Shown piece by piece: positions 2,583-43,711 of a DNA stretch of 47,482 bases; positions within the stretch are counted from its first letter, which is position 1, and each line of letters opens with the position of its first letter. The stretch covers positions 1 through 47,482 of the IMG/VR virus record IMGVR_UViG_3300044470_000442. The stretch is one strand, 5' to 3'. Source of the DNA: a virus. Below the pieces are notes generated by a model. It saw nothing but the letters and a program-made list of their open reading frames with translations, searched no databases and had not been told where the DNA came from. The position numbers were made by a program, and so were the translations under genes.

Positions 2583-3029
2583 ATGAAAAGTAAGGTATAT
2601 ACAGGGGAAAAAAAGAAAAACGTAAGGTACAAGTTTACCCAAGAGGACATCGACCGCGCAAAGAATGCGTATCTCTGTAAGCCAAAAGGTCTTACATGGA
2701 AAGCAATAGTCGACGAAATGCTTTCACAAACCGAAATAAACCTCGAATACAGCAAAAAAATCCCCGCAGGAAAAGGCGGTTTCCGTATTGTCAAGCGCAA
2801 TATATTCCTCAGCGCAGGAAATCGTGCTACCATAAGACATATGATAACGGCAAAACAAATCGAAATGGCAATGGATGGAAACTCCGGAGCCATTGCTGAT
2901 ATACAGGACAGAGACTATGGAAAACCCAGGCAGGCCCTTGAACACTCCCTTGGTTCTCCCCTCGAGGAAGGTCAAAGCGATCCCGATTCTATGATATTGG
3001 CCATGATTCGCAAGGTGATGGATAAATGA
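2583..3029 (+). CDS. putative terminase small subunit
   Basis: First gene of the rightward arm, 148 aa, overlapping the start of the large terminase gene. The assignment is positional and no strong motif was seen. Confidence 0.5.
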   Translation: MKSKVYTGEKKKNVRYKFTQEDIDRAKNAYLCKPKGLTWKAIVDEMLSQTEINLEYSKKIPAGKGGFRIVKRNIFLSAGNRATIRHMITAKQIEMAMDGNSGAIADIQDRDYGKPRQALEHSLGSPLEEGQSDPDSMILAMIRKVMDK

Positions 3030-4540
3030 CCGAACTCGAAACAATTCTTGAGCAACCCGCTCTTCTCCAGCGAATGCCTGATAATGAGAAGGAACAACTT
3101 GTTTTGGAGTTGGAAAGGGTTCTCAGGAAACAAGCCGAGGATCGTTTTTATTATTTCTTTCGCCAGGCGTGGCCGATTATTTGGAAAGCGATCCCATTTG
3201 AGAAGTGTTCTTTCTATGAACCACTTTGTGATGAACTGCAAGAAGTAGCGGAGAGAAATTTCAGAAACGAAGATTGTCTTAATAATGTTGTTGTCAACGT
3301 TCCTCCCGGTACCGCCAAAACAACTTTGTTCTCAGTGGCTTTTCATCCCTGGGTATGGATTGAACAAGCTACAAAGCGTTTCATTACCACTTCCTACTCT
3401 CCTAAAAAAGCCTATGACAATTGTCTGGCATCGATCAATCTTATCAAGAGCCCGTGGTACCAACGTAATTGGTGTGGCAAATATCAATTGAACAGGGATC
3501 TTGGAACAGATTGTCAAAACAGTAAAGGTGGGTACAGAATAATTACCGCTCCTGACGTAAAGGTTGGTACGGGATATCACGCTGACTTTATCATTGGCGA
3601 CGACAACCAGAACGCAGAGGAAGTTTATTCCTCGGCATACAGGGAAAAGGTTTGTCGTTGGCGGGATGAGACAATGTCCACACGCTTGGCAAACAAGAGA
3701 ACGGGCGTGATGATAGATGTCCAACAGAGACTTCACATTAAGGATCTTACCGCACACATTAAGAACACACAGGCAAGCTTGACCAAGTTTATTTCCCTTC
3801 CTGCTGAGAATACATACAAAAACGTTGAACCGCCCGAGTGGGAGAAATACTATATCGATGGTCTTCTGTCACCGAACGCCCTTCTGTCTCCTCTCGTTCT
3901 TAGCAAGGCAAAGACACAATTACGTAATGCTTATCAAGGACAATATAACCAGCACCCTGTCCCCTCGAACGGAACGTTATTCAAGGACGAGTGGGTGCGG
4001 TGGGTGACTGCCGAACAGCTTCCTGAGATGGAACTGGTCGTCGTTTCAGCGGACACGGCACAGACGGATAAGCAGTCCTCGTGTCCAGTGTCAATACAGA
4101 CATGGGCAAAGGAACGTGGTGCACCAAATTTCTATCTGCTCGGGGATGAGACGGACATCATGTCTATCCTATCAACCGAAAAAAGGATTGTTGCTGTCGC
4201 TGCCGTTAACCCAGGCTGTGTCATCGTGATAGAGCGGGAAGCAAGTGGTTACACAATCCTTGAGAACCTGAAAAAGGTATACCCTCTTGTCTTTGGCTTC
4301 GATCCCAGAAAATACGGCGGGAAAGAAAAGCGCGCAGAGATGGTCAGTCGTTACTGGGAGGCCGGGAACGTTTTTATCCTTCTCAACGAGTATTACAAAT
4401 CAAGATATGTTCCTGAAATAATTGACTTCCCGAATGGTCCATATAAAGACAGGGTCGACGCGATGTCTCAAGCCCTTATCTGGATCAACCGTGAGGAACT
4501 GACCCGGGTCAATCCTAACCCTAACCCACAGGTGTATTGA
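3026..4540 (+). CDS. terL: terminase large subunit
   Basis: 504 aa. Walker A-like VPPGTAKTT and Walker B-like DFIIGDD. C-terminal RNase-H-like nuclease signatures VVSADTAQTD and DRVDAMSQAL. Confidence 0.9.
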   Translation: MTELETILEQPALLQRMPDNEKEQLVLELERVLRKQAEDRFYYFFRQAWPIIWKAIPFEKCSFYEPLCDELQEVAERNFRNEDCLNNVVVNVPPGTAKTTLFSVAFHPWVWIEQATKRFITTSYSPKKAYDNCLASINLIKSPWYQRNWCGKYQLNRDLGTDCQNSKGGYRIITAPDVKVGTGYHADFIIGDDNQNAEEVYSSAYREKVCRWRDETMSTRLANKRTGVMIDVQQRLHIKDLTAHIKNTQASLTKFISLPAENTYKNVEPPEWEKYYIDGLLSPNALLSPLVLSKAKTQLRNAYQGQYNQHPVPSNGTLFKDEWVRWVTAEQLPEMELVVVSADTAQTDKQSSCPVSIQTWAKERGAPNFYLLGDETDIMSILSTEKRIVAVAAVNPGCVIVIEREASGYTILENLKKVYPLVFGFDPRKYGGKEKRAEMVSRYWEAGNVFILLNEYYKSRYVPEIIDFPNGPYKDRVDAMSQALIWINREELTRVNPNPNPQVY

Positions 4541-5155: not shown

Positions 5156-6067
5156 ATGTTGTTCGCTGATACGAAAACAGACGTTGTCTTTTTCTCCGTG
5201 ATGTTCTCCCAGCGATGGCCGGAGCTGTTTCGCTTTATCAAGACAGCCCTCAATACCTGCGGCGTCGAGGTTGTTTTGGTTCAAGGAAACTTTAATATCT
5301 GGGCGCGTGACTGGCTGCCCCTGCAGGTGGGGGACCACTTCGTTAAATTTTTGTACAAGGGATATGGCTCGATGTACGAGGACTTTCCTTGGTTGAATGT
5401 TCCCCAAAAGGTAATACAGAACGCCCTTCCGGGCCTTCGTTTTTTAATGTCAACTCTTACCATGGACGGTGGCGGTATTGTTCGTTGTGGTAAGAAGGTT
5501 GTGGTAACCGAGAAGGTCTTTCTTGACAACAAGGATAAAGACGAAAAGGAAATTATGGCGCTGTTGCAGTATTACTTCAACGCGGACATCATTGTTATAC
5601 CCATAGAGCCAGGAGATGACCTTGGGCATTCTGACGGAATCGTGAAGTTCGTTAATGAAAATACAATCCTTCTTAATAACTACAGTGTGATGCTTAGTGA
5701 TGAATATGATACATATTTTAAGAAGGTAAAGGACATTCTCACCAACGCTGGTCTCAAGATTGTTCTCATGCCCTTTGCCTATCAACGTTGCCCCGTTTTG
5801 TCCGATGAAGCCTTTAAGGCTAAATACCCGTTGGCAGATGATAACAACCCGGCAGTGGGTTATTACGTCAATTTCCTTTTGACAAGCAGGTGCATCCTCC
5901 TTCCCGTGTTTGGCTTTGAGGAAGATGCCGCGGCCCTTGTAACCATACGGGAGTGTTACCCTGACCATGTTGTGATCCCTGTTGACTGCTACGAACTCTC
6001 CATGGAGGGTGGCTTGATGAACTGCGTTACGATGAACTACATTAAGGAGAATATGGTATGTCGATAA
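5156..6067 (+). CDS. agmatine deiminase / Porphyromonas-type peptidyl-arginine deiminase-like enzyme (guanidino-group-modifying superfamily)
   Basis: 303 aa. Motifs NIWARDWLP (cf. D-x-W-x-RD-x-GP), LGHSDGIVKF (cf. GH-x-D) and C-terminal EGGLMNCVTMN (cf. GGG-x-HC-x-T with catalytic Cys) match the PAD_porph/AguA pattern as I recall it. Confidence 0.7.
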   Translation: MLFADTKTDVVFFSVMFSQRWPELFRFIKTALNTCGVEVVLVQGNFNIWARDWLPLQVGDHFVKFLYKGYGSMYEDFPWLNVPQKVIQNALPGLRFLMSTLTMDGGGIVRCGKKVVVTEKVFLDNKDKDEKEIMALLQYYFNADIIVIPIEPGDDLGHSDGIVKFVNENTILLNNYSVMLSDEYDTYFKKVKDILTNAGLKIVLMPFAYQRCPVLSDEAFKAKYPLADDNNPAVGYYVNFLLTSRCILLPVFGFEEDAAALVTIRECYPDHVVIPVDCYELSMEGGLMNCVTMNYIKENMVCR

Positions 6068-7818
6068 ATCAACCAGGAATACCAGCAGGACTCAGCTCAT
6101 CGATCAACGCACCCTCCGGTATTCGCTCAGGCACGGCCGCTCAGGGAAACAGTCCTATCTCCGTGTCAATTGGTGCGGTGACCTCACAGTCCGCTCCGAC
6201 ATATACACTACAGAATACCCAGCCCGGTACTCCTATATATCAATGGGACATCTACGACTTCATGCTCAACGCCTATTTCGGTGAGGGCGGGTTCCACGAC
6301 GGCTCGGCCCTGGTCAAGTCACAGATTGAGAAGGACGTACAGTATGTAGAACGTCGTGCCAACTCTTACTACAAGAACTACGTTCGCCCGATCATCGACG
6401 CGACCTATATCCCTGTCTTCACGAAACCCGTCAAGCGGGTGACCAAGGTCAACGGTGCCGACGACCCCGAGGGAAAAGCGGCTCCAATGTGGAAGGCCTT
6501 CTGTGATAACGTAGACAACAGGGGAACAGACATTGCCCTGTTTGCCCAAAAGGTTGTACGCTATGCCAGAATACATGGCGTTTCGTTTATTGTCATGGAC
6601 AATTTTCCAGATCCTCCGGTGGCCGAGGCCGATGCAATCAAGGAGAGAAAGTTTCCTTTTGTGGCGATGCGCCTGCCGCAGCAGGTCGAGGTTTCCCTGC
6701 TGAAACTTGACCGCTTTATGGGAATCGAAGAGATTGCTTTCAGAGAAGCTCCCTGCAAGGGACAGGAACGCTGGAAGCTTTGGACGAAGGAATACTCGGT
6801 CTGTTTATACAAGGACAAAGAGGGTAACTTTCAGCAGGACGGTGAGACACTATTCGTATATAACCTGGCAAAGGTTCCGGTTATTCCGGTTTTCTCAGCG
6901 GAGTGTGAAGATGGAACAATCCTCCCGAAACCGAACTTTTATGATATAGCACGTTGTAACTGGAAACTGTTCAATACCTGCTCCGCTCAGGACAGGTTGA
7001 TGCGTGCACAGATGTTCGCGATCCTTTGCGCACCGAAGATTGAGCAGGGCTTCGCGTCATCGCCTAACCAGGGTTTCGAGCTTCCCGCAAACGACTCCAA
7101 CTCAGGAGTGTCTTACCCGACACCGTTTTACCTTGCCCCTCCGACCGGTCCCTACGCCGAGATAGGCAAGAACATAAACGATCTCGGGAACGACTTGTTT
7201 CAGATGGCAGGACAGCAGGGTGTGACCGGGGTCAAGACTGAAGCGTCAGGGATTGCCGCTGCTTATGACTGGCAGGGGCAAGAGTGGGTGCTTAAGCAGA
7301 CTGCCGCGATGGCAAAGCTTTCCGAGGAAAAGATCGCAGAGGTTTATCAGCTGTATGTACCAACAATCAAGATTGAGTATTGTGCTGAATATTCGACGGA
7401 CTATCAGGTCATTGACCAGATGGCAAAAGGTAATCAGTTCAGTCGCTTTCTTGCCGATATTTCCCAGCTTAGTGTTCCGTACAATCCTGTCGTAGCAGAG
7501 GGAATCATCGAGTATTGCTACGCAACCTATAACGGGATCAAGGAAGAGGAGGTGCAGGAAATTATTGATTGGATAGAGAAGAACACAAGCGAGGATGCCG
7601 AACCACAAGCAGACACAAGTATTCCGGAGTTGAACGATAATGACAAAGTGATGTCCTTCCTTAAGGACAAGAACCATGTACCGAACTCGGCTTTTGCCAA
7701 GAACACCACAACTAAAAAGGGCGTCAGCAACCCAAGGGGACAAGGTGGAACAAACGATGATCCTACCTTGGAAGACAACAACGTTCCAAACCCTAAAGAG
7801 GAGGTTGCCGTTAAGTGA
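6058..7818 (+). CDS. putative portal protein
   Basis: 586 aa with AAGGAG 8 nt upstream. Located between the terminase block and the MuF-like head morphogenesis gene. Assigned by position and size. Confidence 0.65.
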   Translation: MSINQPGIPAGLSSSINAPSGIRSGTAAQGNSPISVSIGAVTSQSAPTYTLQNTQPGTPIYQWDIYDFMLNAYFGEGGFHDGSALVKSQIEKDVQYVERRANSYYKNYVRPIIDATYIPVFTKPVKRVTKVNGADDPEGKAAPMWKAFCDNVDNRGTDIALFAQKVVRYARIHGVSFIVMDNFPDPPVAEADAIKERKFPFVAMRLPQQVEVSLLKLDRFMGIEEIAFREAPCKGQERWKLWTKEYSVCLYKDKEGNFQQDGETLFVYNLAKVPVIPVFSAECEDGTILPKPNFYDIARCNWKLFNTCSAQDRLMRAQMFAILCAPKIEQGFASSPNQGFELPANDSNSGVSYPTPFYLAPPTGPYAEIGKNINDLGNDLFQMAGQQGVTGVKTEASGIAAAYDWQGQEWVLKQTAAMAKLSEEKIAEVYQLYVPTIKIEYCAEYSTDYQVIDQMAKGNQFSRFLADISQLSVPYNPVVAEGIIEYCYATYNGIKEEEVQEIIDWIEKNTSEDAEPQADTSIPELNDNDKVMSFLKDKNHVPNSAFAKNTTTKKGVSNPRGQGGTNDDPTLEDNNVPNPKEEVAVK

Positions 7819-8786
7819 GACCGTCTCCTTTCAAACGCTATGCTGATGCCTTCGGTGCCCGTTGGGACGCCATAAGTCCTGAGCTGCAGCAGGAGATCCT
7901 TGCGGACATTGCCGCGGGAAAGCCTCCCGCTATTGCGGTCAAAGTCGTGTTTGAGAGGCATGGGATCAAGGAGAAGATCGCCGACTGGATCGCCGAGGGT
8001 TGTTTAGAATCAGCAGCAGCTGGTGGTGTGAAATTTGCAAGCGACCTTACCGGGCGCTTTTACTTTTTGAACAAGACCTTTAACGCCGACAGCATTTCTC
8101 TCAGCGAACGCGTCACGCAACTTAAGTTTCAGGACACGGTTGTTTCGACATTGCAGGCAAACCTCGCCAGCCAGGACCAGTTTTCAAGGCTGGTGACTGA
8201 CCTGGCAAAATACACTACCGAGGAAGACCTGCCGCAAGGTCTTTTGGAGCTTGAAAGACAGGCACGCCGGGTTATGTCCGGGGATGTTGAGGCCTTCGAT
8301 GAGTTCGCCGCGACCTTGAAAAAGGAAAAGGCTATAGCCTTATCCGCAATACACGACGGTGACGAGACCGTTTTGAAACGTTCCTATGTAAAGCTTACCA
8401 AAGCAGCGGAAAGCTTGAACGAGAAAAGTCTTAACTATGCCGTGGAGAACGCAATTGACCAAAAGGCACGCAGTGCCGCCTTTCGTATCGCGCATACAGA
8501 AATGGCCAATGCCTATGGCTTGGCGGTCAGGACAGATGCGGCGCGAGACACAGAATGCACGGGTATCGAGTGGACGCTTTCGTCTGCCGAGAACCATTGT
8601 GATGTTTGCGATGATCTTGATGGGAAGGTCTTTGCCCTGGGTGAGTTGCCGGAATATCCGGCGCACCCTCATTGTTCGTGTCATCTTGATAAATACTACG
8701 GTGATGAAAGCGATGTTGAGAACAAACCTGGTAATTCAGACGATGAGACAATACCCGAGGAACTTTTACTTGAAAGCGGGGATTAA
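7815..8786 (+). CDS. head morphogenesis / minor capsid protein, SPP1 gp7 - Mu F family
   Basis: GTG start overlapping the portal stop (GTGA), with GAGGAGG upstream. The C-terminal motif HCDVCDDLDGKVF...YPAHPHCSCH is typical of the MuF/gp7 family. Confidence 0.8.
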   Translation: MRPSPFKRYADAFGARWDAISPELQQEILADIAAGKPPAIAVKVVFERHGIKEKIADWIAEGCLESAAAGGVKFASDLTGRFYFLNKTFNADSISLSERVTQLKFQDTVVSTLQANLASQDQFSRLVTDLAKYTTEEDLPQGLLELERQARRVMSGDVEAFDEFAATLKKEKAIALSAIHDGDETVLKRSYVKLTKAAESLNEKSLNYAVENAIDQKARSAAFRIAHTEMANAYGLAVRTDAARDTECTGIEWTLSSAENHCDVCDDLDGKVFALGELPEYPAHPHCSCHLDKYYGDESDVENKPGNSDDETIPEELLLESGD

Positions 8787-9787: not shown

Positions 9788-11023
9788 ATGCCAACAACAG
9801 CAAACGTATTGACCGGACTGATGCCAACTTTCTTTCGGGCCTTGAACATGGTCAACAACGAAAAGACAGACGCGATTGACGCGGTCACCCTGAACTCCGA
9901 CCTGGCACAGGCAGTCGTAGGGCAGACGATCACGTACCCGATCGCGGCGCCCAAGTCCTTATATGACATCACCCCTCAGGCCAACCCGTTGGATATCAAC
10001 GGAGACACGGCCGGCACGGGTACGATGCAGATCAGCTATTCCAAGGCGGCAAGTTTCAAGTGGACCGGTGAGGAGCAGAGACAGCTTCAACTCGGCGGGA
10101 TCAGCCAGTACTACGCGGATCAGTCCGCGCAGTGTATCCGTGCCATCAGGAACTATGTCGAGTCTCTTATTGTAACGACAGCAGCGGTGAATGCCTGCCG
10201 CGCGGTCGGTACTCCGGGAACGACCCCGTTCGCGTTCAACGGCACAACGATCTCCGGGATGGAAAACTTCGCGGACTCCCTCAAGGAAATGGAGGACAAC
10301 GGTTCTCCTGATGCGGACATCCACATGATTCTCGGAACGAAAGCGGCTGCGGGTGCGCGGAAAATCCCGAACCTGTTCAAGGCAAATGAGGCCGGGACAG
10401 ACCGGATGCTTCGCACCGGTGCCATCGGTCAGATCGAAGGCTTCAACGTCGGGGTGTCTCCCCAGATCAAGACGAAGCACGTCATCGGCGCCTCGACCGG
10501 CAACGTCCTGAACGGTGCCGCCGCTGCAGGCCCCTTCACGACTCCGCAGGTCATTGCAATCCACAATGGCACGGGCGCGATCAATGTTGGTGACCTCGTG
10601 ATCTTTGCAAGTGACACAACCAGAACCTACGTGGTTCTTTCCGCGACAGGCGGAGCGACTCCGACAAGCATCACAATCGCGGCACCCGGATTGTCCATTG
10701 CCGGGGCAGACGGAGACGCGGTGACCGTTGTCGGTACCGGAGTATCTGCAGACAACTTCATCTCGAACCTCTTCTTCTCACGCGATGCAATTCACCTTGT
10801 CGCACGCCAGCCGATGTTGCCCGTCAACCTCGGTGGAACGGCAACCGGTGTGACCGGAGCAGTCGGTACCTTGATCGACTGCAAGCTTCTTCCCGATCCG
10901 CGGAGCAAGCTGGTGTACCAGATCGCAGCCTGGGCGGAACATCGCCAGATCACGATCGAGTTCGGTCTTGCCTTCGGTGTCGGCGTACCGAATCCTCAGA
11001 ACCTTTTCCTGCTGGTGGGATAA
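9788..11023 (+). CDS. major capsid protein (P22 gp5-like coat type)
   Basis: 411 aa, located after the scaffold gene and followed by a terminator hairpin. The C-terminal pattern (GDLVIFAS...FFSRDAIHLVARQP...) resembles the P22 coat protein as I recall it. Confidence 0.8.
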   Translation: MPTTANVLTGLMPTFFRALNMVNNEKTDAIDAVTLNSDLAQAVVGQTITYPIAAPKSLYDITPQANPLDINGDTAGTGTMQISYSKAASFKWTGEEQRQLQLGGISQYYADQSAQCIRAIRNYVESLIVTTAAVNACRAVGTPGTTPFAFNGTTISGMENFADSLKEMEDNGSPDADIHMILGTKAAAGARKIPNLFKANEAGTDRMLRTGAIGQIEGFNVGVSPQIKTKHVIGASTGNVLNGAAAAGPFTTPQVIAIHNGTGAINVGDLVIFASDTTRTYVVLSATGGATPTSITIAAPGLSIAGADGDAVTVVGTGVSADNFISNLFFSRDAIHLVARQPMLPVNLGGTATGVTGAVGTLIDCKLLPDPRSKLVYQIAAWAEHRQITIEFGLAFGVGVPNPQNLFLLVG

Positions 11024-11934: not shown

Positions 11935-12345
11935 TTGGCAGAGCAGAATATATTAACTTTTGACCTAAAGCCGTTTGAGGACTTCTGCGGACGGATGCCT
12001 ATGATGTTGTACGATGATGCCCTAAAGATCATACGCCTTCATCTTGTCAACATCCGCACGATAGCCAGGCAGATACACCGGTTTCAGGCGACGCCAGGAA
12101 AAAGACCGAACGGAAGATATTATCGAAACACGGGACGGCTTGAGCGGTCGGTACAGGTACACATGGAAAGCGACGGCGGCAGCGTGTACCTCGATGAGGG
12201 GATTGCTGACTATGGAAAATATGTTCATGAAGGACAACGTTCATGGGCACCGGATCAATTTGTATATGACGCCTTTGAGTCACAGAGGGACGAGATAGAT
12301 TCAGACCTAACCTACGCCATTTCACAGGCGATAAGGGAGATGTAA
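11935..12345 (+). CDS. HK97 gp10-like neck / tail-completion protein
   Basis: 136 aa with a TTG start. The ADYGKYVHEG motif resembles the gp10-family Y-x-x-x-vE-x-G signature. Located in the neck module. Confidence 0.45.
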   Translation: MAEQNILTFDLKPFEDFCGRMPMMLYDDALKIIRLHLVNIRTIARQIHRFQATPGKRPNGRYYRNTGRLERSVQVHMESDGGSVYLDEGIADYGKYVHEGQRSWAPDQFVYDAFESQRDEIDSDLTYAISQAIREM

Positions 12346-12346
12346 A

Positions 12347-12943
12347 ATGCCGTATGCCTATCCATCAATAGGACTGTATCCGAGGTGGCCGTGGTTGATT
12401 AATTTCACGGACCTTTCGGACGCAGTCGTTAAAAAGTTCGGTGACTCTTACCTTATCGGTATGCCCGATGAACAGGTCAACGTCATTGCTCCCGGTGGAA
12501 GCATCCTCCTGACGGACTCGTCCATCTTGACCGTTTCACCGAATGATCCGACAACTCCAGTGGGTAAACTTCGCATTGCAAACAACTCAGCCTCGCCGAT
12601 CAACGTGAGCCTAAAAAATTATTATTACAACGTGGCAAAGGCCTTAGCTGACTTGGCAAACACGAAGGGCGTGGATGAGGCCCAGGTTAACGCAGTCAAT
12701 CCTCCCCACTATATGCTTGTACAGTGGCAGATTGCTTATCTGCAGGAACAGGTTTGCAAGGACAATGTTGGTCTCAACGATACCGTTGACCCGATCATGG
12801 ACAAATACCGAGGAAAGGAAAAAGACTATCACAGCGAGCGCGTGACCTGGACGGGAAAGATAAATTACGAGACATTTAATACAGCGGCAATGCAGCAGTC
12901 CTTTACACGCGCGGCCGCACGAACCTTTGATGTGATGTATTGA
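12347..12943 (+). CDS. hypothetical structural (neck/tail) protein
   Basis: 198 aa, starting 2 nt after the upstream stop. Assigned by position only. Confidence 0.5.
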   Translation: MPYAYPSIGLYPRWPWLINFTDLSDAVVKKFGDSYLIGMPDEQVNVIAPGGSILLTDSSILTVSPNDPTTPVGKLRIANNSASPINVSLKNYYYNVAKALADLANTKGVDEAQVNAVNPPHYMLVQWQIAYLQEQVCKDNVGLNDTVDPIMDKYRGKEKDYHSERVTWTGKINYETFNTAAMQQSFTRAAARTFDVMY

Positions 12944-12945
12944 GC

Positions 12946-13686
12946 ATGATAACAATTACAAGCCAGCCAACCTCACAGGTTGTTCACCTCGGCCTAACGG
13001 CTTCCTTTATCGTTGCCGCTGATCATAGCAATGTTCTTGCCAACCTGTTTTTTCAGTGGTACAAGAACGATAAGGTGATGCAGGGAGAGACCAACAACAT
13101 CCTTACGTTGACCAACGTTGCCGTTGAGGATTCGGATGTTTACTCCTGTGTCGTTTCAGATGACCTTGATACCGACATGGTAAAGACAGACTACGCTGCT
13201 TTGGCCTCTTCCCTGCTTGACTATATTGAACTGAACATGAAGATAAAGATGCTGGGAATGACCATTACCGGAGGGTATAACTTTGACTGGAAGACCGTGA
13301 ACCAACCGGACGAGGCCCTTGGTGATTTTCCACGTGCTGTCATCGCCTCTCCCCAGGAAAACTGTATTGATGAAATGATCGGGCAGGACACCCAGTCTTA
13401 TGCAAACAATGTTTTATTTTTGGTTCAAGTCAAGGGAAGCCAAGCGTGGAACAGCAACGCAAACTTTATGATTAGAAGCAACCTTCGCCTTGCGTTGGAT
13501 GACCTTAAGCGTCTTTTTGGGCAAGACACCTCAATCAACGGAACCTGTGAGGTTGTCATGTACCGCGGAAGTCAGGTAATAAATATCAACCAGAACGATA
13601 TACAAAGACCGTCCCACATGAACACAAGTTGGACGGTGCGCTACGCTCAGGATCGCCTTGAGCCTCTGGTTGTTTCAAGTTCTTAG
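12946..13686 (+). CDS. neck/tail protein with N-terminal Ig-like domain
   Basis: ATG at 12946 (the track lists a TTG at 12940). The N-terminus ITSQPTSQVV...FQWYKND...LTLTNVAVEDSDVYSCVVSDD has the Ig I-set-like W...DxxxYxC pattern. Confidence 0.55.
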   Translation: MITITSQPTSQVVHLGLTASFIVAADHSNVLANLFFQWYKNDKVMQGETNNILTLTNVAVEDSDVYSCVVSDDLDTDMVKTDYAALASSLLDYIELNMKIKMLGMTITGGYNFDWKTVNQPDEALGDFPRAVIASPQENCIDEMIGQDTQSYANNVLFLVQVKGSQAWNSNANFMIRSNLRLALDDLKRLFGQDTSINGTCEVVMYRGSQVININQNDIQRPSHMNTSWTVRYAQDRLEPLVVSSS

Positions 13687-13718: not shown

Positions 13719-15458
13719 ATGAGTTCACCATTTTTAGAGGTAAAGAAGTTCCTCATCGGAAAAATAGAGGAGCAGGCAATTCCGTCCATCTCCAGCGGCG
13801 TGGCAGTTATTCCGTTGAAGCTTCCAATTACCAGCCCTTTGTCAAAGGGAACAGGGCTTACGGTTGACATCACGGCTGTTGCCGGAATAATCACCGTTGC
13901 TGCTCCGAACATTGGCGGAACCGGCTATGCCGTTGGCGATACCGTCCTCGTTGAAGGCGGCGTCAATGGAGCATTGGTCGTGGCGACTGCTCCCCTGGGA
14001 GTCGTCGGGTCTTTAACCATCAATAACGGTGGCACAGGGTACACGACAGGAACAGCACAGTTGACCGATCCTATGCCCTCGTGGGCAACCAAATTTCCCG
14101 AGGAATTTGTCATACAAGATATGGCCAACAGAGAACGCCTTCTTTTCACCGGCATCGAAGCAACGGCGGGAGTTTATTCCGCGGTTGCGTCAACCAACCT
14201 TGTCAACTCCTACGCGGTACCCTTTGCGTCAATTCTCACTCCGGGAGCGGTACAGATTCTTACCAGCGAAGATTTCAACGTACGCCTTCGTGCCTTGACC
14301 ATGGCACCGACCATCGTGACCGACGGTGAGGCTGAGAAGTTCGCTACGGGTGATCATCGTAAAGACTTTTCGATCATGGGTATGCGGACAGGGACAATTG
14401 GTTTTCAGGACAAGGTTGCGGTCAACCTCTTTCCCGGTACCGGGTTGACTCTCGACATCACGGCAGTGGCCGGCGCAATTACCGTCGCAGTGATTCACAC
14501 GGCCGGAACAGGGTACAATGTCGGTGACCTGGTTACCGTCGCAGGAGGCGTAGATGGAGTTGTTAAAATCAAGACGGTCAACGTCAATACCGGGGCAGTG
14601 ACAGCCATCGACATTATTGCCAATGCGGGTTCGGGCTATACCACGACTACGAATGAAGCAACGACCATAATTCACCAGCTTCCGACGTGGGGAAAGTTCG
14701 CGGTCGGTATGGGAATGCTTCCGAAAAAATACACAACCACAGGCATGGGTCTTGTGGGTGGCTTGAACGCTGCCGACGATATTACGATGACCCTGGGCGT
14801 ATGTTTCGTGCAGGGCGGTGGAAATCCGGCAGGACAGATGTTCCTGTTTTCGGGATGCAAGGGCGACGGAGACATCTCAGCGGACGGTCTCGGCAAGCCC
14901 TGGGTGCTCAAGGGAAATTTCACCGGGAAGTTCCTGAGCGAGACCGACCTGACCAATTCACAAATTTACCAGCTGACGACTCCTGAAACGGCCCTTCCGG
15001 AGAAGATGTTGTCCAACCTGGTCAACACGACGCCGGTCGGTTCGGCAAATGCCGTGCCCCTTCGCGTCACGAAGTTCAGCCTTGCCTTTGGTAACAAGGT
15101 TGGACAGGTGCCCAATCAGGAAGACCCTACAGGCATCGCTTATTTTATGATCACGGAGCGTGACCCTAAGGTGTCAATCGATCCGCTGCTCAAGCCAGTC
15201 AGGGAAGAGGACATTTTCAACAACGTTAACAATGAACAATCCGTCGGGATCATTGTCCAGTCGGCACTCATCGCCCCGAAGATGACGCTTGAGGCTCCGC
15301 GGTCTCAGCTCATGTATCCGACTATCGGGAATAAGGACGGAATTGTTGACACAACCCGTACCTACAGGTGCCTGGGTAATGATCTTGGTTCCGGTTCGGC
15401 ACAGCCGTTAATGACCTTTGAATCATCGTATGAGATACTTATCGGCACGCGGTCGTAG
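13719..15458 (+). CDS. putative major tail (tube) protein with tandem internal domain duplication
   Basis: 579 aa with AAGGAG upstream. It is the last large structural gene before the chaperone/tape-measure block. Two roughly 70-aa repeats are present (GTGLTVDITAVAGIITVA...GGTGYAVGDTVLVEGGVNG... and GTGLTLDITAVAGAITVA...AGTGYNVGDLVTVAGGVDG...). The tube assignment is positional. Confidence 0.5.
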   Translation: MSSPFLEVKKFLIGKIEEQAIPSISSGVAVIPLKLPITSPLSKGTGLTVDITAVAGIITVAAPNIGGTGYAVGDTVLVEGGVNGALVVATAPLGVVGSLTINNGGTGYTTGTAQLTDPMPSWATKFPEEFVIQDMANRERLLFTGIEATAGVYSAVASTNLVNSYAVPFASILTPGAVQILTSEDFNVRLRALTMAPTIVTDGEAEKFATGDHRKDFSIMGMRTGTIGFQDKVAVNLFPGTGLTLDITAVAGAITVAVIHTAGTGYNVGDLVTVAGGVDGVVKIKTVNVNTGAVTAIDIIANAGSGYTTTTNEATTIIHQLPTWGKFAVGMGMLPKKYTTTGMGLVGGLNAADDITMTLGVCFVQGGGNPAGQMFLFSGCKGDGDISADGLGKPWVLKGNFTGKFLSETDLTNSQIYQLTTPETALPEKMLSNLVNTTPVGSANAVPLRVTKFSLAFGNKVGQVPNQEDPTGIAYFMITERDPKVSIDPLLKPVREEDIFNNVNNEQSVGIIVQSALIAPKMTLEAPRSQLMYPTIGNKDGIVDTTRTYRCLGNDLGSGSAQPLMTFESSYEILIGTRS

Positions 15459-15491
15459 TCGTACACAAAACTTGTAGAAAGGGAGTGTACG

Positions 15492-16463
15492 ATGTTTCCA
15501 CGTAATAATTCATACGACAAGATAGTCCCAACAGGGCAGGCCAAGACGCCCTCCGATGTCCGCTGGCCTGCCTATTGCATGGTCGAGCCGTATGAGAAGT
15601 CTTTTTCAACGGCGGTGGCAAATAATGTGTGGATGAAGGAGTTACCGCCCGAGAAGCAAAAGATTGACTACGACAAGGCCTTTCAACAGTTCATGGAGCT
15701 TGGGCAATGGGTCGCTGCCAATTCCTCGACCTATCTTATCCCTAACAAGGGAAAGTACCAAGACCTGATCTACTGCGCCAATATCGGAATTTATCTCGAA
15801 CCTGCAGATGTGATCGTTGTCTCCAATTTCACCTCTGAACCAAGGAGAGGCGAGGACGAGATTGGCAAGGCCTTTTTTGACCTGATGGGTTATACCGTCG
15901 TGAAGCCACCGCCGACCTGTCACTTCGAGGGCGAGGCTGACCTCAAGTTCCAACGGGATAATATCTTTGTCGGTGGTTACGGGATAAGAACCGACAAGGA
16001 GACTTTTGACTGGATGGAACGTCAATTCAATATCAAGATCGTCAAGTGCCTTATGACCGATGAAAGACAATACCACTTCGACTGTATGTATTTTCCGTTG
16101 ACCATGGAGAAGGCGTTGGTGTGTACCGAAATATACCAACCGGCAGACCTTGCCGAAATTGAAAAGGTCGTCGAGATTATTGACATCCCAAAGCCTGAGG
16201 CATACGCGATGTCGACGAATTGCGTTCGTGTTGGAGCGAATATCCTTGTGGCATCGGAGATAACCGAAATGCACTCTTCTGACCCTGCATACATAAACGA
16301 AGTGACCAAACTCGGAAGACTTGGGCAGATTTGTTCCAATAATGGTCTTAGTCTTATTTCGGTTAACCTGTCTGAGTTCAATAAGTCAGGCGCGGCGCTG
16401 TCCTGCCTTATGTTCCATTGCAACTATGTCGATTACCAGTCACCACTCGGTGAGGTATTTTAA
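15492..16463 (+). CDS. amidinotransferase / arginine-deiminase / CtlX-like enzyme (guanidino-group-modifying fold)
   Basis: 323 aa with AGGGAG 7 nt upstream. Motifs HFEGEADL (cf. EGGD), YHFDCMYF (cf. HLD) and C-terminal SGAALSCLMFHC (catalytic Cys position) fit the amidinotransferase (PF02274-like) pattern as I recall it. Confidence 0.65.
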   Translation: MFPRNNSYDKIVPTGQAKTPSDVRWPAYCMVEPYEKSFSTAVANNVWMKELPPEKQKIDYDKAFQQFMELGQWVAANSSTYLIPNKGKYQDLIYCANIGIYLEPADVIVVSNFTSEPRRGEDEIGKAFFDLMGYTVVKPPPTCHFEGEADLKFQRDNIFVGGYGIRTDKETFDWMERQFNIKIVKCLMTDERQYHFDCMYFPLTMEKALVCTEIYQPADLAEIEKVVEIIDIPKPEAYAMSTNCVRVGANILVASEITEMHSSDPAYINEVTKLGRLGQICSNNGLSLISVNLSEFNKSGAALSCLMFHCNYVDYQSPLGEVF

Positions 16464-17179
16464 TGTCACAGTCGCTGGAGGAATGGTTGGTCGAGATTGA
16501 GCCGTTTAAACGGATGGACCCCGATGTCCTTTCGTCGGTGTTCTTTTTTCGTGATCCGTCACGACCGATCTTTCTTGACTCCGATTACATCTTTTCTCCA
16601 GCGGACGGAACCATTATTGACCAGGGTTTTATAAAGCCTGACCAGCAGATTGTGGAGATGAAGGGCGTTGACTATTCGCCAAGGAAGCTTTTGGAGGAGC
16701 CCGCGTTCAACTCGACCTCCTTGTGTATTTCGATCTTTATGTCACAGTATGATGTGCACATTAATCGGATGCCGACAAACGGGAATGTCTTTTTCAGAAC
16801 GGTTGATCCTATCCAGACAAAGAACATTCCGATGATCTTTGAGGAACGGGACCTGCTTGCCGGACATAGCAACTATGAACACATGGACTATGTCACTGCA
16901 AACGCTCGAACAATTAACAGGATCACCAACGGTGGCTACCAATATTATTTGGTACAGATTTGTGATACCGATGTCAACGTGGTTGCTCCGTTTTCGACAA
17001 AGCAGGGGAAACATTTTTTTCAGAACGAACGCTTCTCTGTTGTCCGCTATGGGTCACAGGTAACCCTGGTGCTTCCCTTGACGGATTCGTTTGACTTTGA
17101 CCTGATGGAGCAACCGGAAAGACATGTCAGGGCCGGGCTTGATCGTCTTGTATACCTGAGGTCAAAGAAGCGTGACTGA
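16463..17179 (+). CDS. phosphatidylserine decarboxylase-family pyruvoyl-dependent decarboxylase (short type)
   Basis: 238 aa. The start overlaps the upstream stop (TAATG). Motifs FFFRDPSRP, FSPADGTI, SIFMSQYDVHINRMPTNG and the self-cleavage-type VRYGSQVTLVLP (G-S site) match short PSD/Asd proteins. Confidence 0.75.
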   Translation: MSQSLEEWLVEIEPFKRMDPDVLSSVFFFRDPSRPIFLDSDYIFSPADGTIIDQGFIKPDQQIVEMKGVDYSPRKLLEEPAFNSTSLCISIFMSQYDVHINRMPTNGNVFFRTVDPIQTKNIPMIFEERDLLAGHSNYEHMDYVTANARTINRITNGGYQYYLVQICDTDVNVVAPFSTKQGKHFFQNERFSVVRYGSQVTLVLPLTDSFDFDLMEQPERHVRAGLDRLVYLRSKKRD

Positions 17180-17183
17180 GAAC

Positions 17184-17333
17184 ATGGAGTGCGAGCTTAA
17201 GGCCTTGGCAAGAGAGAAAGCGGTTCGCTCAGTTGTTGAAAAGCACGCAGGCGAGCTTGAGGTTTATTACAAGAGGTACCTACAGCAGCTTAAGCGAAAG
17301 GGAACCGACGATGCCATACACAGTAAGAAAAGG
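17184..17333 (+). CDS. possible 49-aa helical micro-ORF
   Basis: Not in the track. ATG at 17184, translating to MECELKALAREKAVRSVVEKHAGELEVYYKRYLQQLKRKGTDDAIHSKKR. Weak SD. Overlaps the next candidate by 23 nt. Confidence 0.3.
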
Positions 17334-17451
17334 TAAGGGAACGAAGACCTACAAGATCCTCAAAAAGGACTCCGGGCGTCAGGTCGGAAGCAGCAAGATC
17401 AGGAAGATGGCAGAGGCATCTGTAAGAGCCCGCCATGCTGGGGATAGGTAA
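17311..17451 (+). CDS. possible 46-aa basic micro-ORF
   Basis: Internal ATG of track ORF 17233..17451, whose listed start is TTG. Translates to MPYTVRKGKGTKTYKILKKDSGRQVGSSK... Weak SD. Confidence 0.3.
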   Translation: MPYTVRKGKGTKTYKILKKDSGRQVGSSKIRKMAEASVRARHAGDR

Positions 17452-17543: not shown

Positions 17544-18050
17544 ATGGGCGTCAGGCAGGAATTAACCGATGATTTAAGGAAACAGCTGGCAGGGTATCTT
17601 CCCTTTTCTCCCAGCGCGAGCATTGACTATACTCCGGCATTTTTTCTCAGGAAAAAAGAAGCCTGGAGCGACGAGAAGAAACAGTTTGTCTCGCTTGAGG
17701 AGTTTCTTATTCCTGACGGGTACCGTCCAACCTTTACTCTTCGTCCTTTTACCAAAGAAGAATACGACGAAGCCGGCAAGGTCATGCACGCAGAGGTTCT
17801 TGATGTGGACAACAAGAAGCTGCTTGATAATGCCGCAATGACAAAGGAGCTTGTTCGCAAGGTTATTCTTGGTTGGAAAGACTTTTTCGACATAGGCTCG
17901 TTGCAGGAAATTGAATACAAAGGAGGCAACGGGGTGGACAAGGATCTGTGGGTGTCTACGCGTCTTCCTGATTGGGTTTATTCCGATCTCAGAAACTATG
18001 TGTATCGTTTGTCAGGGATCACGCCGGGCGAACGCATATCTTTAAAGTAG
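17544..18050 (+). CDS. tail assembly chaperone (gpG-like, zero-frame product)
   Basis: 168 aa, directly upstream of the tape measure gene. It ends in the slippery heptamer T_TTA_AAG immediately before its stop. Confidence 0.7.
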   Translation: MGVRQELTDDLRKQLAGYLPFSPSASIDYTPAFFLRKKEAWSDEKKQFVSLEEFLIPDGYRPTFTLRPFTKEEYDEAGKVMHAEVLDVDNKKLLDNAAMTKELVRKVILGWKDFFDIGSLQEIEYKGGNGVDKDLWVSTRLPDWVYSDLRNYVYRLSGITPGERISLK

Positions 18051-18373
18051 CGGCGAGCATCCGCGCCGGCCTATTTGTCTGTGATTGTACCGGATGTGAT
18101 GAAAGTGCAAGGAAAGAGTGGGGATGTTATGAACCTGTTGATGCTCCTGTATGGGAAGATGAAGAGGATGCGTTTTATAATTGTCCTGCTCGCTTCATTG
18201 CTCCTTGTGTGCCTGATTTTCTTGGTCGCTATGCTGCAATCAAAAATGGATGGGCACAAGCGTTGAGGTACGACGAGTACCAGAACAGATTTATTGAATA
18301 TGTCAACCGTTTCGAGGCAGAGTTGAAAAAGGCCTTGGCCATTAAAAATAAAGGTGCAAAAAATGCCGAGTGA
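17544..18373 (+). CDS. tail assembly chaperone -1 frameshift fusion product (gpGT-like)
   Basis: The -1 frame is open from 17972 to 18373. A slip at 18041..18047 would join 167 aa of the zero frame to ...FKVAASIRAGLFVCDCTGCDE... The extension overlaps the tape-measure start by 20 nt, the classic G/GT arrangement. Confidence 0.6.
18041..18047 (+). promoter_or_regulatory. -1 programmed ribosomal frameshift slippery heptamer TTTAAAG
   Basis: The zero frame reads tc[T TTA AAG] TAG, which is the canonical X_XXY_YYZ register. It lies inside the window where both frames are open. Confidence 0.6.
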
Positions 18374-20453
18374 ACATGACATACAGGTAATGCTAAAGCT
18401 ACAGAGCACCCTCGCTGCCCAGATCAAGCAGGAGGAGGAGAAGGTCAAGGACTCGATGACAAAGATGTCTGAGTCCGCGTCTTCTTTTGGCAGCGTTGTT
18501 GGTAAGGTTGCCGGCGCTGCCGGCGCTGCTCTCGCTGCCATGAAGATCGTCGACATCACGAAGCAGGCTCTGGAGATGGGTGACCGCATAACCGAAACCT
18601 CGGCGCGTATGGGCATGTCTACTACCACCTTTCAAAAGTGGTCATACATTGCCAAGGAAAGCGGTGCCAACATGGACACGTTGGCAAGGGGTTTCAAGGA
18701 ACTCGCAGTCAAGGCCGAGGCGAATGATCCTATCTTTAAGAAGCTTGGCATCTCCACAAGGGATGAGCACGGGGCCTTAAAGGACACTTCAGACATCATG
18801 CAGGAGGTTGTCGAACGCCTTGCCCAGATACAGAACCCGACTGAGCGTTTAGCGGTTGCACAAAAACTTCTCGGCAGGGCAGCGGGAGACGCGATGCAGA
18901 TGGCGGCACTCGGGGCCGAGAAATTTGGTGAACTTGCCGCTGAATCTGACAAGTTCAGCCTCACGGATGAGCAGCTCAAATCCCTGCACGACGCAAACAA
19001 GTCCATTGAACGAACCGGTGAACTTCTTACCATCATGGCCGGGCAGGTCGTTTCTCTATTTGCTCCAGCGATTGAAAAGGTCTCCGGGTTCATTGCGAAG
19101 ATGGCCGAGGACTGGAAGTTTCTCCTTTTTAGCAAGGACGAGACTGCCGAAAAAAGGGCGCAGATAGAAATGATCGGCGTGTCGATTGACATGACCCGAA
19201 AGAAAATTGCCGAACTCAAGACACAGTCATTTAATTTTGGTGCACCAGGCCTGCAGATGGTGAACCCGGCCCTAACTGCTGCCGAGGAAAAGCTCAAGGA
19301 TCTTGAGAAACAGATGCGGGCGTTGATAGGTGTTAAGGCACCAGAGACCGCCAAGACAGCGGCACCAGAGACCGCCCAGACAGCGGGTGATGTTGACCCG
19401 ACAAAGGCCAATCCCGATAAAAAACTCGCTGAGGAATTGATCAAGCTTAATGAGGACACTCGGCATACCATTGCCCAACAGAATATGAATGATGACGAGC
19501 GTGAGCTCGATGACCTAAAAAGCAAATACAGCCAGATGTTTCAGCTCGCCTGGAAAAATGGCAAGGACACTACCGATATTGTCAAGGCCTATGCAGGCGA
19601 GCGGTCTGAGGTGACAAGCAAGCAGCAACGAAAAAGTATCGAGGAGGAAAAGAAGGTCACGCTTGAGACAAAAAAGCTCGCGATGGACGCCCACAAGCAC
19701 CAGATAGAGGAGCAGAAAAAATACGCGGTGCTTATGCTTAAGGGCACAAAGACAGGATTTATCCATGTGGCGATGGCTTACCAGCAGGACAAGGCCGAGT
19801 TTGATACCTTGTTGCATGGTAAGCTTATTTCTCAAAACCAATACGATGCCGCCTTGACAAAATTGCAAGGTGAGGCAATGGCCGGATACGCTGAGATAAC
19901 CCTTTCCTCCTTGTCATCCATAGCCGAGGCGACGAAGGCGAACTCTCAGGTGAAAAGGCGAATAGCAGAAGGTGAGGCTATTATCTCAGGTGGCAAGGCC
20001 GCTTTGGGTGTGATCGAAAACTCCGGGCAGTTTATCTCAACTTTCGGTCCGGTAGCGGGACCGATTCTTATGGGAGTTGAACTCGCCGGAATCATTGCCG
20101 AAGCGGTTGTTCAGGTTCAGAAAATCGAATCCGCCAAGATGAAATATGGCGGCGTGGTAACCGGTGGAACGCCCGGACAAGATAGCGTTCCGGCAATGCT
20201 GATGCCAGGTGAGGTCGTATATAATCCGGCAAATCCTAACTCGGCACTTGCCTCAATTATTGGAAGTTCGACAACCAATAACGCTGGAAACGTACATATT
20301 CACATGGGCGGAGCGGTGAGCATTCAAGGCTCACCCAGCCGTGGTGACCTTAAGACAATTCAGGACCATATTGACAAGGGTGTGACCAAGGCATTGCGCC
20401 GCGCTCAGAACCTTGGCAAGGTCAACGCACCCGGCCTGGTGATCAGGAGCTAA
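18354..20453 (+). CDS. tail tape measure protein
   Basis: 699 aa, long helical Ala/Lys/Glu-rich protein located after the chaperones. The N-terminal region ...TTFQKWSYIAKESGANMDTLARGFKELAVKA resembles TP901-type TMP cores. Confidence 0.85.
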   Translation: MQKMPSEHDIQVMLKLQSTLAAQIKQEEEKVKDSMTKMSESASSFGSVVGKVAGAAGAALAAMKIVDITKQALEMGDRITETSARMGMSTTTFQKWSYIAKESGANMDTLARGFKELAVKAEANDPIFKKLGISTRDEHGALKDTSDIMQEVVERLAQIQNPTERLAVAQKLLGRAAGDAMQMAALGAEKFGELAAESDKFSLTDEQLKSLHDANKSIERTGELLTIMAGQVVSLFAPAIEKVSGFIAKMAEDWKFLLFSKDETAEKRAQIEMIGVSIDMTRKKIAELKTQSFNFGAPGLQMVNPALTAAEEKLKDLEKQMRALIGVKAPETAKTAAPETAQTAGDVDPTKANPDKKLAEELIKLNEDTRHTIAQQNMNDDERELDDLKSKYSQMFQLAWKNGKDTTDIVKAYAGERSEVTSKQQRKSIEEEKKVTLETKKLAMDAHKHQIEEQKKYAVLMLKGTKTGFIHVAMAYQQDKAEFDTLLHGKLISQNQYDAALTKLQGEAMAGYAEITLSSLSSIAEATKANSQVKRRIAEGEAIISGGKAALGVIENSGQFISTFGPVAGPILMGVELAGIIAEAVVQVQKIESAKMKYGGVVTGGTPGQDSVPAMLMPGEVVYNPANPNSALASIIGSSTTNNAGNVHIHMGGAVSIQGSPSRGDLKTIQDHIDKGVTKALRRAQNLGKVNAPGLVIRS

Positions 20454-39221: not shown

Positions 39222-39357
39222 ATATTACACGTAATTCAGTTTTGGTAAAGTATCCTTCGGTACCACCCTCTTCCACGGGTATGTGCAAAAGGGAGCAGAT
39301 ACACTTATGATAATCAACACGACCCTTTCGGGTCTTTTTATTTTTTCGTTTCTTCAT
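39127..39357 (-). CDS. possible small basic protein (76 aa)
   Basis: Bridges the polymerase stop and the primase start, overlapping both. Its reality depends on which primase start is used. Confidence 0.35.
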   Translation of the reverse strand: MKKRKNKKTRKGRVDYHKCICSLLHIPVEEGGTEGYFTKTELRVIFEYIGKSLEGQSNASSDAEKSVDNVRTVRVP

Positions 39358-41128: not shown

Positions 41129-41129
41129 T

Positions 41130-41993: not shown

Positions 41994-42061
41994 GATCTTT
42001 TCCTCCTGAAAAATGTGACGTAACATGACTGGGAACTATTGAGCGGTTCCCGTTCGCTTAA

Positions 42062-43024: not shown

Positions 43025-43027
43025 AGG

Positions 43028-43207: not shown

Positions 43208-43209
43208 GG

Positions 43210-43709: not shown

Positions 43710-43711
43710 GA

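Follow-up and report, generated by a model that had tools for sequence, protein, structure and literature searches.

A predicted pyruvoyl decarboxylase of the phosphatidylserine decarboxylase fold, paired with an arginine dihydrolase homologue in tailed phages, may convert arginine to a diamine

The IMG/VR virus record IMGVR_UViG_3300044470_000442, analysed here in full (47,482 nucleotides, hereafter the window), carries within its structural gene block a gene for a protein related to phosphatidylserine decarboxylases (PSDs). Its start overlaps the end of a gene for a GME-fold protein homologous to the arginine dihydrolases ArgZ and AgrE of cyanobacteria. We judge it an even call that the PSD-like gene encodes a pyruvoyl decarboxylase of the PSD fold which, paired with the arginine dihydrolase, turns arginine into a diamine, probably putrescine, without an external cofactor. 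Because the membrane module of ordinary PSDs is missing, the ArgZ-like partner is obligate, and bacterial relatives stand in operons with exporters, the product would be a soluble, arginine-derived, and probably cationic small molecule. The gene family is already in databases as phosphatidylserine decarboxylase. What appears to be undescribed in the literature that we searched is a distinct, anchor-less clade of it, mostly viral and locked to an arginine-dihydrolase-like partner; no description of the gene pair in phages was found there.

Results and discussion

Family membership and catalytic residues of the PSD-like protein

An earlier note, made from the DNA sequence alone, had assigned this open reading frame (ORF) to the PSD family, pointed to a Gly-Ser site for self-cleavage and pyruvoyl formation, and called for a PF02666 profile search and an alignment of the Asp-His-Ser triad. 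The 238-residue ORF is present as described, and its translation contains all four motifs quoted there (FFFRDPSRP, FSPADGTI, SIFMSQYDVHINRMPTNG, and VRYGSQVTLVLP). The profile search places the protein in PF02666 (PS_Dcarbxylase) with E = 1.3e-25 and a score of 90.7 bits (gathering cutoff, 22), over protein residues 26 to 225 and profile positions 6 to 193 of 198, a match that by sequence is far beyond chance. An AlphaFold2 model built on 77 homologues (pLDDT 83.4, pTM 0.83) was compared with the PDB by Foldseek, and its sole match was to the chains of Escherichia coli PSD (probability 1.00, E ~4e-7).

Conservation of residues in the PSD-like family was counted over 77 aligned members, with identity down to 24%. 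The pair G197-S198 and H99 are invariant (77/77 each), D48 is kept in 75, R102 in 73, and D97 in 70 members. Alignment to E. coli PSD (7CNW/6L06) equates D48 with D90, D97 with D142, H99 with H144, and G197-S198 with the G253-S254 of the E. coli LGST motif. Mutagenesis has shown that E. coli PSD matures mainly via D90/D142-H144-S254, that H144 is absolutely conserved and needed for decarboxylation, and that the H147A and H147N variants still cleave (PMC7952604). Because G197, S198, and H99 are invariant and D48 and D97 are kept, the machinery for self-processing and decarboxylation looks intact. The alignment thus agrees with the earlier note on the cleavage site and on the triad (D48, D97, H99, and S198 are all present) and identifies H99 as the functional histidine.

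The position of E. coli H147 is occupied by Arg102, as in all short-type PSDs, and Ser198 is followed by Gln, where the E. coli LGST motif has Thr255. A broken catalytic triad, for which the arginine might be taken, was ruled out: the key role belongs to H144, not to H147, and short-type PSDs have HxNR as their standard motif. In bacterial genomes, hundreds of ordinary short-type PSDs, such as those of sphingomonads, were retrieved by the pattern DVH(I/V)NR, which also occurs in short PSDs that bear transmembrane (TM) segments (P0096-P0098).

Departure of the clade from membrane PSDs

The PSD-like protein shares its fold and the size of its catalytic core with the short-type PSDs and archaetidylserine decarboxylases (Asd) of PF02666 (TIGR00164/PRK05305-type proteins, including P0096-P0098 and the sphingomonad loci L131-L179). 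Common to both are the motifs FRDPxR, SPADG, DVH(I/V)NR, NER, and (R/K)xGSQV, and a predicted Gly-Ser serinolysis that would yield the pyruvoyl group. It nonetheless misses all 15 NCBIfam equivalog cutoffs for PSD/Asd (18 to 74 bits against cutoffs of 112 to 377), its best matches being NF003685 (74.3 bits against 183) and TIGR00164 (68 against 230), and it belongs to PHROG 12670, a family of unknown function.

The largest difference lies at the N terminus. A hydropathy scan found no hydrophobic segment or TM helix in the PSD-like protein, whose maximum 19-residue Kyte-Doolittle mean is 0.85 against 2.2 to 2.5 in the TM-bearing P0096-98; the two-TM, hydrophobic N terminus of the short-type enzymes is absent from the clade. 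Only 29 to 32 mostly acidic residues precede FRDP in clade members (29 residues with a net charge of -4 in the window protein), compared with 71 residues and a net charge of +7 in E. coli PSD and 74 to 80 hydrophobic residues in TM-type short PSDs. The N-terminal domain of E. coli PSD binds the membrane through three amphipathic helices and contacts acyl chains through L13, L18, V37, and F41, and this enzyme does not decarboxylate substrates without acyl chains. A second difference is the segment from G107 to N147, which is 40 to 43 residues long in the clade and 24 to 30 in membrane PSDs (24 in the short-type enzymes); within it, Glu128 is clade-specific. Relative to E. coli Psd (PDB 6L06, 7CNW-7CNZ), the sole solved structure matched, the protein keeps D90, D142, H144, G253, and S254 at an identity of only ~19-20%; it differs in lacking the three amphipathic helices and, as a clade, the C-terminal extension, and in the substitutions H147 to Arg and T255 to Gln. 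No Pfam family of lipid synthesis occurs in any inspected neighbourhood of the clade, with the limit that pssA was not searched genome-wide.

The GME-fold partner

The adjacent upstream gene encodes a protein that matches PF19420 (E = 6.6e-8) and falls into PHROG 12759. Its best NCBIfam match is Arg_dihydro (96.4 bits, under the cutoff of 450), and its top sequence match in the PDB is ArgZ (Sll1336; E = 9e-21). The AlphaFold2 model of the partner (pLDDT 90.5) agrees with this assignment: AgrE/ArgZ lead the Foldseek results (E ~1e-21, TMt 0.90, root-mean-square deviation 2.3-2.6 Å), and DDAH (1e-13), the amidinotransferases SxtG and AGAT (1e-10 to 1e-11), agmatine deiminase (1e-8), and likewise arginine deiminase rank far below. 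On these sequence and model comparisons, the best description of the partner is a distant homologue, in stand-alone form, of the arginine dihydrolase domain.

Eight ArgZ residues (D65, N71, R90, E118, D122, R139, H168, and C264) correspond to D91, N97, R118, E146, D150, R166, H195, and C305 of the partner, all of which are invariant in 46 of 46 homologues. The offset of 21 between chain and native ArgZ numbering was checked against the known C264, H168, and N71; the N71S mutant of ArgZ traps a covalent intermediate, according to the title of PDB 6JUZ. The partner differs from ArgZ (Sll1336) and AgrE (Alr4995; PDB 6JUY-6JV1, 6LRF-6LRH), its best matches in both sequence and structure, in its identity of only 23-24%, in standing alone without the ornithine-cyclodeaminase-like C-terminal half, in being paired with a decarboxylase, and in the replacement of ArgZ R84 by Asn throughout the partner clade. 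Judged by sequence, it is a distinct and distant subfamily of arginine dihydrolases.

Two of the invariant residues, R118 and R166 (ArgZ R90 and R139), we take to hold the alpha-carboxylate of the substrate, by analogy with DDAH-type enzymes, and their retention suggests that the partner acts on an amino acid. ArgZ frees two NH3 per arginine, and the partner would most likely convert arginine to ornithine, CO2, and two NH3. The earlier note had proposed amidino or ureido chemistry for this gene. An enzyme that transfers an amidino group is less likely here than one that hydrolyses a guanidino group, because the partner is structurally of the ArgZ/AgrE type and not an amidinotransferase.

Distribution and pairing of the two genes

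We identified 252 IMG/VR viral contigs with a member of the clade by a pattern and tblastn scan, and used the best 80 of them for counts of pairing and context. The GME gene lies immediately or just upstream of the PSD-like gene in 77 of the 80 loci; in the remaining three the PSD-like gene abuts the contig end, so that pairing is complete in all 77 informative loci. Among cellular genomes, surveyed with one genome per species (185,579 bacterial and archaeal species), only ~27 species carry a full-length clade member, at 34 to 45% identity, below which ordinary short PSDs follow. These carriers include Nocardia, Saccharothrix, Streptoalloteichus, Allokutzneria, Kutzneria, Xenorhabdus indica, and various metagenome-assembled genomes (MAGs); natural-product-rich actinomycetes are thus represented together with X. 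indica. In 25 of the 27 bacterial clade loci the GME gene is a direct neighbour, mostly in the order PSD then GME, whereas it adjoins the PSD gene in none of 53 loci of ordinary short PSDs. An exhaustive phmmer search of 1.84 billion representatives returned 66 clusters (50% identity) at E <= 1e-30. By these counts of clusters, contigs, species, and pairing, the clade is small, predominantly viral, and defined by its GME partner.

The same 45 GenBank phages carry both genes: 39 phages of Campylobacter (Fletchervirus; CP81, CPX, NCTC12673, and others) and six of Bacteroides (DAC19-23 and SJC03). The earlier note had regarded a PSD as unusual in tailed phages; the viral majority of the clade, with its 252 contigs, two PHROGs (12670 and 12759), and 45 GenBank phages, speaks otherwise. 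Some of the GenBank copies carry the label 'phosphatidylserine decarboxylase'. In the Bacteroides phages the genes are neighbours; in the Campylobacter phages they are separated by tens of kilobases. In the Fletcherviruses (for example L001, 7001-9185), the PSD-like gene lies directly 3' of a gene for a GroES-like co-chaperonin and is overlapped at its 3' end by a Hef-type homing endonuclease gene, and the GME gene maps to a separate place, between gp41 and gp45. Rearrangements of the kind typical of these genomes seem to have separated the two halves of the cassette. In Campylobacter phage CPX, the unlinked GME gene is flanked by replication genes, which are uninformative.

Three cluster representatives have unusual architectures, each possibly an artefact of gene calling. 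P0231 (390 aa) joins the PSD-like domain to an Acb1 anti-CBASS domain, P0221 (1114 aa) joins it to VapB-like and ADP-ribosyltransferase exoenzyme domains, and in P0233 (737 aa) a LAGLIDADG intein splits the PSD-like gene.

Genomic contexts in phages and bacteria

The dominant viral gene order belongs to T4-like aquatic myophages and runs prohead protease, gp23 major capsid protein, GME, PSD-like, and PhoH, with gp23 present in 69 and PhoH in 73 of the 80 viral loci. In another myophage (~100 kb) the pair sits between the portal and capsid genes. Siphoviruses related to the window phage (L020, L180, and L181) have the cassette in the same slot as the window, between a homologue of the 579-aa protein described below and the tail chaperone. 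Among these siphoviruses the two cassette enzymes are 55 to 75% identical, compared with 23 to 58% for their structural neighbours, and are the best conserved proteins of the region.

In bacteria (loci L100-L126, L003, L005, and L009), the next gene encodes either a MatE transporter (10 loci) or an ABC exporter (10 loci); the two are mutually exclusive and together account for 20 of the 27 loci. The MatE form occurs, for example, in Nocardia terpenica, Saccharothrix algeriensis, and Xenorhabdus indica. The arrangement PSD, GME, exporter looks like a three-gene operon for making and exporting a product, and these exporter operons therefore indicate a product that is soluble and exported. At one bacterial locus (L018/L019) the pair lies between genes for a polyketide synthase (PKS) and a nonribosomal peptide synthetase (NRPS).

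A gene of the PAD_porph/agmatine-deiminase family recurs near the cassette. In phage L180 (8212-10840, JGI 3300081534) it stands between the GME and PSD-like genes and encodes a 303-aa protein with only 44 bits to TIGR03380. It also occurs a few genes from the cassette in two Nocardia (L003 and L109) and a Hyphomicrobium MAG (L102); the Nocardia L003 protein (12039-13082) matches TIGR03380 over its full length with 247 bits, under the cutoff of 382.

Proposed function

Under the reading that we favour, the PSD-like protein would be a soluble, self-processing, pyruvoyl-dependent enzyme, descended from short-type phosphatidylserine or archaetidylserine decarboxylases by loss of the N-terminal membrane and lipid-binding region. 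The GME-fold enzyme would convert L-arginine to L-ornithine, CO2, and two NH3 in a first step, and the PSD-fold enzyme would decarboxylate ornithine to putrescine and CO2 in a second. Co-transcribed with the virion genes, the cassette would supply the diamine late in infection, during DNA packaging and condensation and at a time of high translation demand. Two suggestions of the earlier note, a substrate other than a membrane lipid and a two-step pathway with the GME-fold neighbour, are strongly supported by the comparative evidence: the former by the absence of a lipid-binding N terminus, the pairing, and the exporters, the latter by the pairing in 77 of 77 viral, 25 of 27 bacterial, and none of 53 ordinary loci. 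The substrate of the clade is probably not a membrane lipid.

There is precedent for pyruvoyl enzymes of the PSD fold that act on free amino acids. One is the tryptophan decarboxylase PsiD. Another is Ao-ADC1 of Aspergillus oryzae (PDB 9JER), a PF02666 arginine decarboxylase that self-cleaves at Gly-Ser and for which a pyruvoyl-agmatine Schiff base has been seen crystallographically (PMC12904898). The predicted mechanism of the clade, Gly-Ser self-cleavage followed by a pyruvoyl Schiff base, is the same. Ao-ADC1 and PsiD differ in that they are eukaryotic and ~480 aa long, carry a GGST motif, and have a long helical region at the N terminus, and neither was returned by a search of PDB sequences with the family profile or by Foldseek against the PDB, both of which gave only E. 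coli PSD. The likeness is therefore one of functional analogy only, and the phage clade would have arisen independently, from bacterial or archaeal short-type PSDs.

Enzymes of polyamine synthesis are known from phages, among them pyruvoyl ornithine and arginine decarboxylases derived from AdoMetDC/SpeD (Li et al. 2023, PMC9992855; PMC10407285), and spermidine is needed for phage replication (PMC9992855). The logic proposed here is the same, a self-processing pyruvoyl enzyme that makes putrescine or agmatine, but the fold of the clade is that of PSD and not of AdoMetDC. The survey of PMC9992855 is silent on PSD-family, dihydrolase, and amidinotransferase genes and on Campylobacter and Bacteroides phages.

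More tentatively, we suggest that the cassette may constitute an undescribed, cofactor-free route from arginine to putrescine, formed by an ArgZ-like enzyme and a PSD-fold ornithine decarboxylase through neofunctionalisation of a lipid enzyme. Borne mainly by phages (aquatic T4-like myophages, Campylobacter Fletcherviruses, Bacteroides myophages, and the siphovirus lineage of the window), it would raise the late supply of polyamines; this fuller account is possible, though on the doubtful side.

Several points weigh against the diamine reading. From its conserved residues we infer that the PSD-like protein cleaves itself, and we likewise infer what the substrate and product are, in which order the steps run, and how the phage benefits. 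Between the PSD-like model and E. coli PSD the template modelling score reaches only ~0.47. The clade-specific insert (residues ~118-145), to which the phosphate-recognising Ser166/Val167 loop of E. coli maps, is modelled with low confidence. The phosphate-binding Tyr137 of E. coli aligns with the conserved Phe92 in HMMER and with Tyr96 in MAFFT, so that its mapping is ambiguous. The active site is not demonstrably re-tooled, because the conserved cationic residues R30, R34, R149, R190, and R195 are common to the membrane short-type PSDs. The dedicated exporters and the one PKS/NRPS context are explained by a specialised secreted metabolite no less well than by a housekeeping polyamine, and the recurrent agmatine-deiminase-family neighbour suits an order of steps through agmatine better than one through ornithine. 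The position in the structural module may also reflect a permissive insertion site and not a late function.

Alternative explanations

The alternative that survives best, although we consider it rather unlikely, reverses the steps. The PSD-fold protein would be a pyruvoyl arginine decarboxylase that forms agmatine, and the ArgZ-like enzyme would hydrolyse the guanidino or ureido group of agmatine or N-carbamoylputrescine, which yields putrescine, or would form a diguanidine such as arcaine by amidino transfer. That a PF02666 enzyme, Ao-ADC1, decarboxylates arginine is consistent with this order, as are the recurrence of agmatine-deiminase-family genes with the cassette in phage L180 and in Nocardia and the bacterial gene order, in which PSD precedes GME. 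The partner, however, keeps R118 and R166, which presumably hold a carboxylate as in DDAH and so point to an amino acid substrate, and it is structurally nearer to ArgZ than to agmatine deiminase or the amidinotransferases. Neither the profile nor the Foldseek searches tied the PSD-like protein to Ao-ADC1.

It is improbable, to a further degree, that the pair makes or destroys an arginine-derived molecule in order to manipulate the host or counter its defences, whether by depletion of arginine, by release of ammonia as a nitrogen source, or through a signalling or toxic guanidino compound or amine, the bacterial counterpart being a secreted specialised metabolite. The MatE and ABC exporters and the PKS/NRPS-flanked locus are compatible with such a role, and so are the Acb1 and ADP-ribosyltransferase domains fused or contiguous with the PSD-like domain in P0231 and P0221, and the two NH3 expected of an ArgZ-type reaction. 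The fusions are single cluster representatives that may be gene-calling artefacts, however, and the phage copies come without an exporter. Nothing specific ties the pair to a known defence system, although no PADLOC test was run.

Current annotation in GenBank, at JGI, and in a marine survey of auxiliary metabolic genes (AMGs), which counts viral psd as lipid metabolism, would make the protein a true decarboxylase of phosphatidylserine or archaetidylserine that increases or remodels the phosphatidylethanolamine of the host during infection. We find this quite unlikely. PF02666 membership, the PSD/Asd models among the top NCBIfam matches, and the HxNR and GSQV catalytic motifs shared with short-type membrane PSDs are what one would expect of such an enzyme, and the public records and the AMG survey read the viral gene in this way. 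But the TM or amphipathic N-terminal domain, through which E. coli PSD binds acyl chains, is absent, and all equivalog cutoffs are missed widely. The gene is almost invariably linked to that of a soluble arginine dihydrolase homologue, a linkage seen with no ordinary PSD, and the inspected neighbourhoods hold exporter operons and no lipid-synthesis genes. Remodelling of host phosphatidylethanolamine, which the earlier note had offered as a second option, is thereby disfavoured.

A part in DNA hypermodification, with the cassette supplying an amine donor or a step of the 7-deazaguanine pathway, is very improbable. The window does hold FolE, QueE, QueD, QueC, and TGT/DpdA-like genes (Table 1), and the Campylobacter Fletcherviruses, which carry the pair, are reported to have 7-deazaguanine DNA. 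In the window, however, the two modules lie 16 kb apart on opposite strands. The cassette is also found in exporter operons of bacteria and, next to gp23 and phoH, in many T4-like phages whose fetched flanks contain no Que genes; a nucleic-acid substrate is known for neither enzyme family. Least credible of all is a decayed, non-catalytic PSD homologue (a pseudoenzyme or structural moron), to which the arginine at the H147 position and the glutamine in place of the LGST threonine might point: H147 is dispensable, the key H144 is kept, HxNR and GSQ are normal in short-type PSDs, the catalytic residues are conserved over 77 sequences in a protein better conserved than its structural neighbours, and one member carries an intein.

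If the PSD-like protein is a soluble amino-acid decarboxylase, as the diamine reading holds, the 'phosphatidylserine decarboxylase' labels and the ecological inferences derived from them are wrong. It would then represent a third independent fold for phage diamine routes, after the pyridoxal-phosphate-dependent and AdoMetDC-derived enzymes, and a fresh case of a lipid enzyme recruited into small-molecule metabolism. The bacterial make-and-export operons suggest an unrecognised secreted metabolite derived from arginine. Probably mis-annotated, the cassette is widespread among aquatic T4-like phages and also occurs in Campylobacter and Bacteroides phages that can be grown in culture, which makes the hypothesis directly testable.

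Layout of the cassette and coordinates

The GME and PSD-like ORFs are co-oriented within a structural gene block of siphovirus type (Table 1). The GME stop and the PSD-like start share one base (TAATG), and a GAGG lies 7 nt upstream of that start. This one-base overlap and the preceding GAGG make translational coupling from GME to PSD-like plausible, as the earlier note had proposed. A scan for promoters and terminators over 12.8-18.5 kb of the window gave sites no more numerous than in shuffled controls.

Table 1 Coordinates of the cassette, its predicted functional sites, and other annotated genes in the window
Feature	Position	Strand	Basis
GME-fold, ArgZ/AgrE-like arginine dihydrolase homologue (323 aa)	15492-16463	+	Profile, PDB sequence, AF2/Foldseek, invariant residues
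Shine-Dalgarno-like AGGGAG, 6 nt 5' of the GME-fold ATG (15492)	15480-15485	+	Sequence inspection
GME-fold catalytic codon, His195	16074-16076	+	
GME-fold catalytic codon, Cys305	16404-16406	+	
GME/PSD-like coupling junction (GAGG 16452-16455, TAA 16461-16463, ATG 16463-16465)	16452-16465	+	Sequence inspection
PSD-fold (PF02666) pyruvoyl-type decarboxylase proenzyme, predicted soluble (238 aa); predicted chains: beta, residues 1-197, alpha, residues 198-238	16463-17179	+	
Asp48 codon (E. coli PSD D90), SPADG motif	16604-16606	+	Alignment to 7CNW/6L06
Codons D97-V-H99-I-N-R102 (E. coli D142-Y-H144-R-V-H147)	16751-16768	+	Alignments, mutagenesis literature
Gly197-Ser198 codons, predicted serinolysis site (Ser198 to pyruvoyl, predicted)	17051-17056	+	Alignment
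Large terminase	3026-4540		
Portal	6058-7818		
Head morphogenesis	7815-8786		
Major capsid	9788-11023		
Neck/tail completion	11935-12345		
Tape measure	18354-20453		
GTP cyclohydrolase I/FolE	32992-33894	-	
QueE-like radical SAM	33894-34496	-	
QueD-like	34474-34878	-	
QueC	34875-35531	-	
Queuine tRNA-ribosyltransferase/DpdA-like	35531-36586	-	

Other features of the window phage

Megablast with an 8-kb part of the window found no match among GenBank phages, and no tRNAs were found in the window. The capsid protein shares only ~36% identity with P22-type coat proteins from proteobacterial siphoviruses.

Just upstream of the cassette, a 579-aa ORF (13719-15458, + strand) contains two copies of a Gly/Thr/Val-rich domain of ~70 aa (residues ~37-114 and ~248-318); these repeats match 'baseplate wedge' and 'structural protein' PHROGs and no Pfam family. 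A 248-aa ORF (12940-13686, + strand) has an Ig-like domain at its start. Either of the two could be a major or decorated tail protein. Between the PSD-like gene and the tail chaperone (17172-17451, + strand) lie two small, overlapping, unannotated ORFs, the first of 54 aa with a GTG start that overlaps the PSD-like stop, the second of 72 aa and very basic (46 aa if read from the ATG at 17312). The ORFs at 17544-18050 and 17972-18373 (+ strand) overlap by ~80 nt in different frames directly 5' of the tape-measure gene, a location at which phages usually encode tail assembly chaperones of the G/GT type, made by a programmed -1 frameshift.

A complete 7-deazaguanine (preQ0-type) cluster occupies 32992-36586 on the - strand, and the DNA of the window phage is probably 7-deazaguanine-modified. 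A DUF932 protein is encoded at the left end (100-1152, - strand). The replication module (36583-46829, - strand) comprises ParB_N, a Toprim primase, a family A DNA polymerase with a 3'-5' exonuclease, an SSB-like protein, AAA_24, a PD-(D/E)XK nuclease, a UDG-superfamily protein, and an SNF2 helicase.

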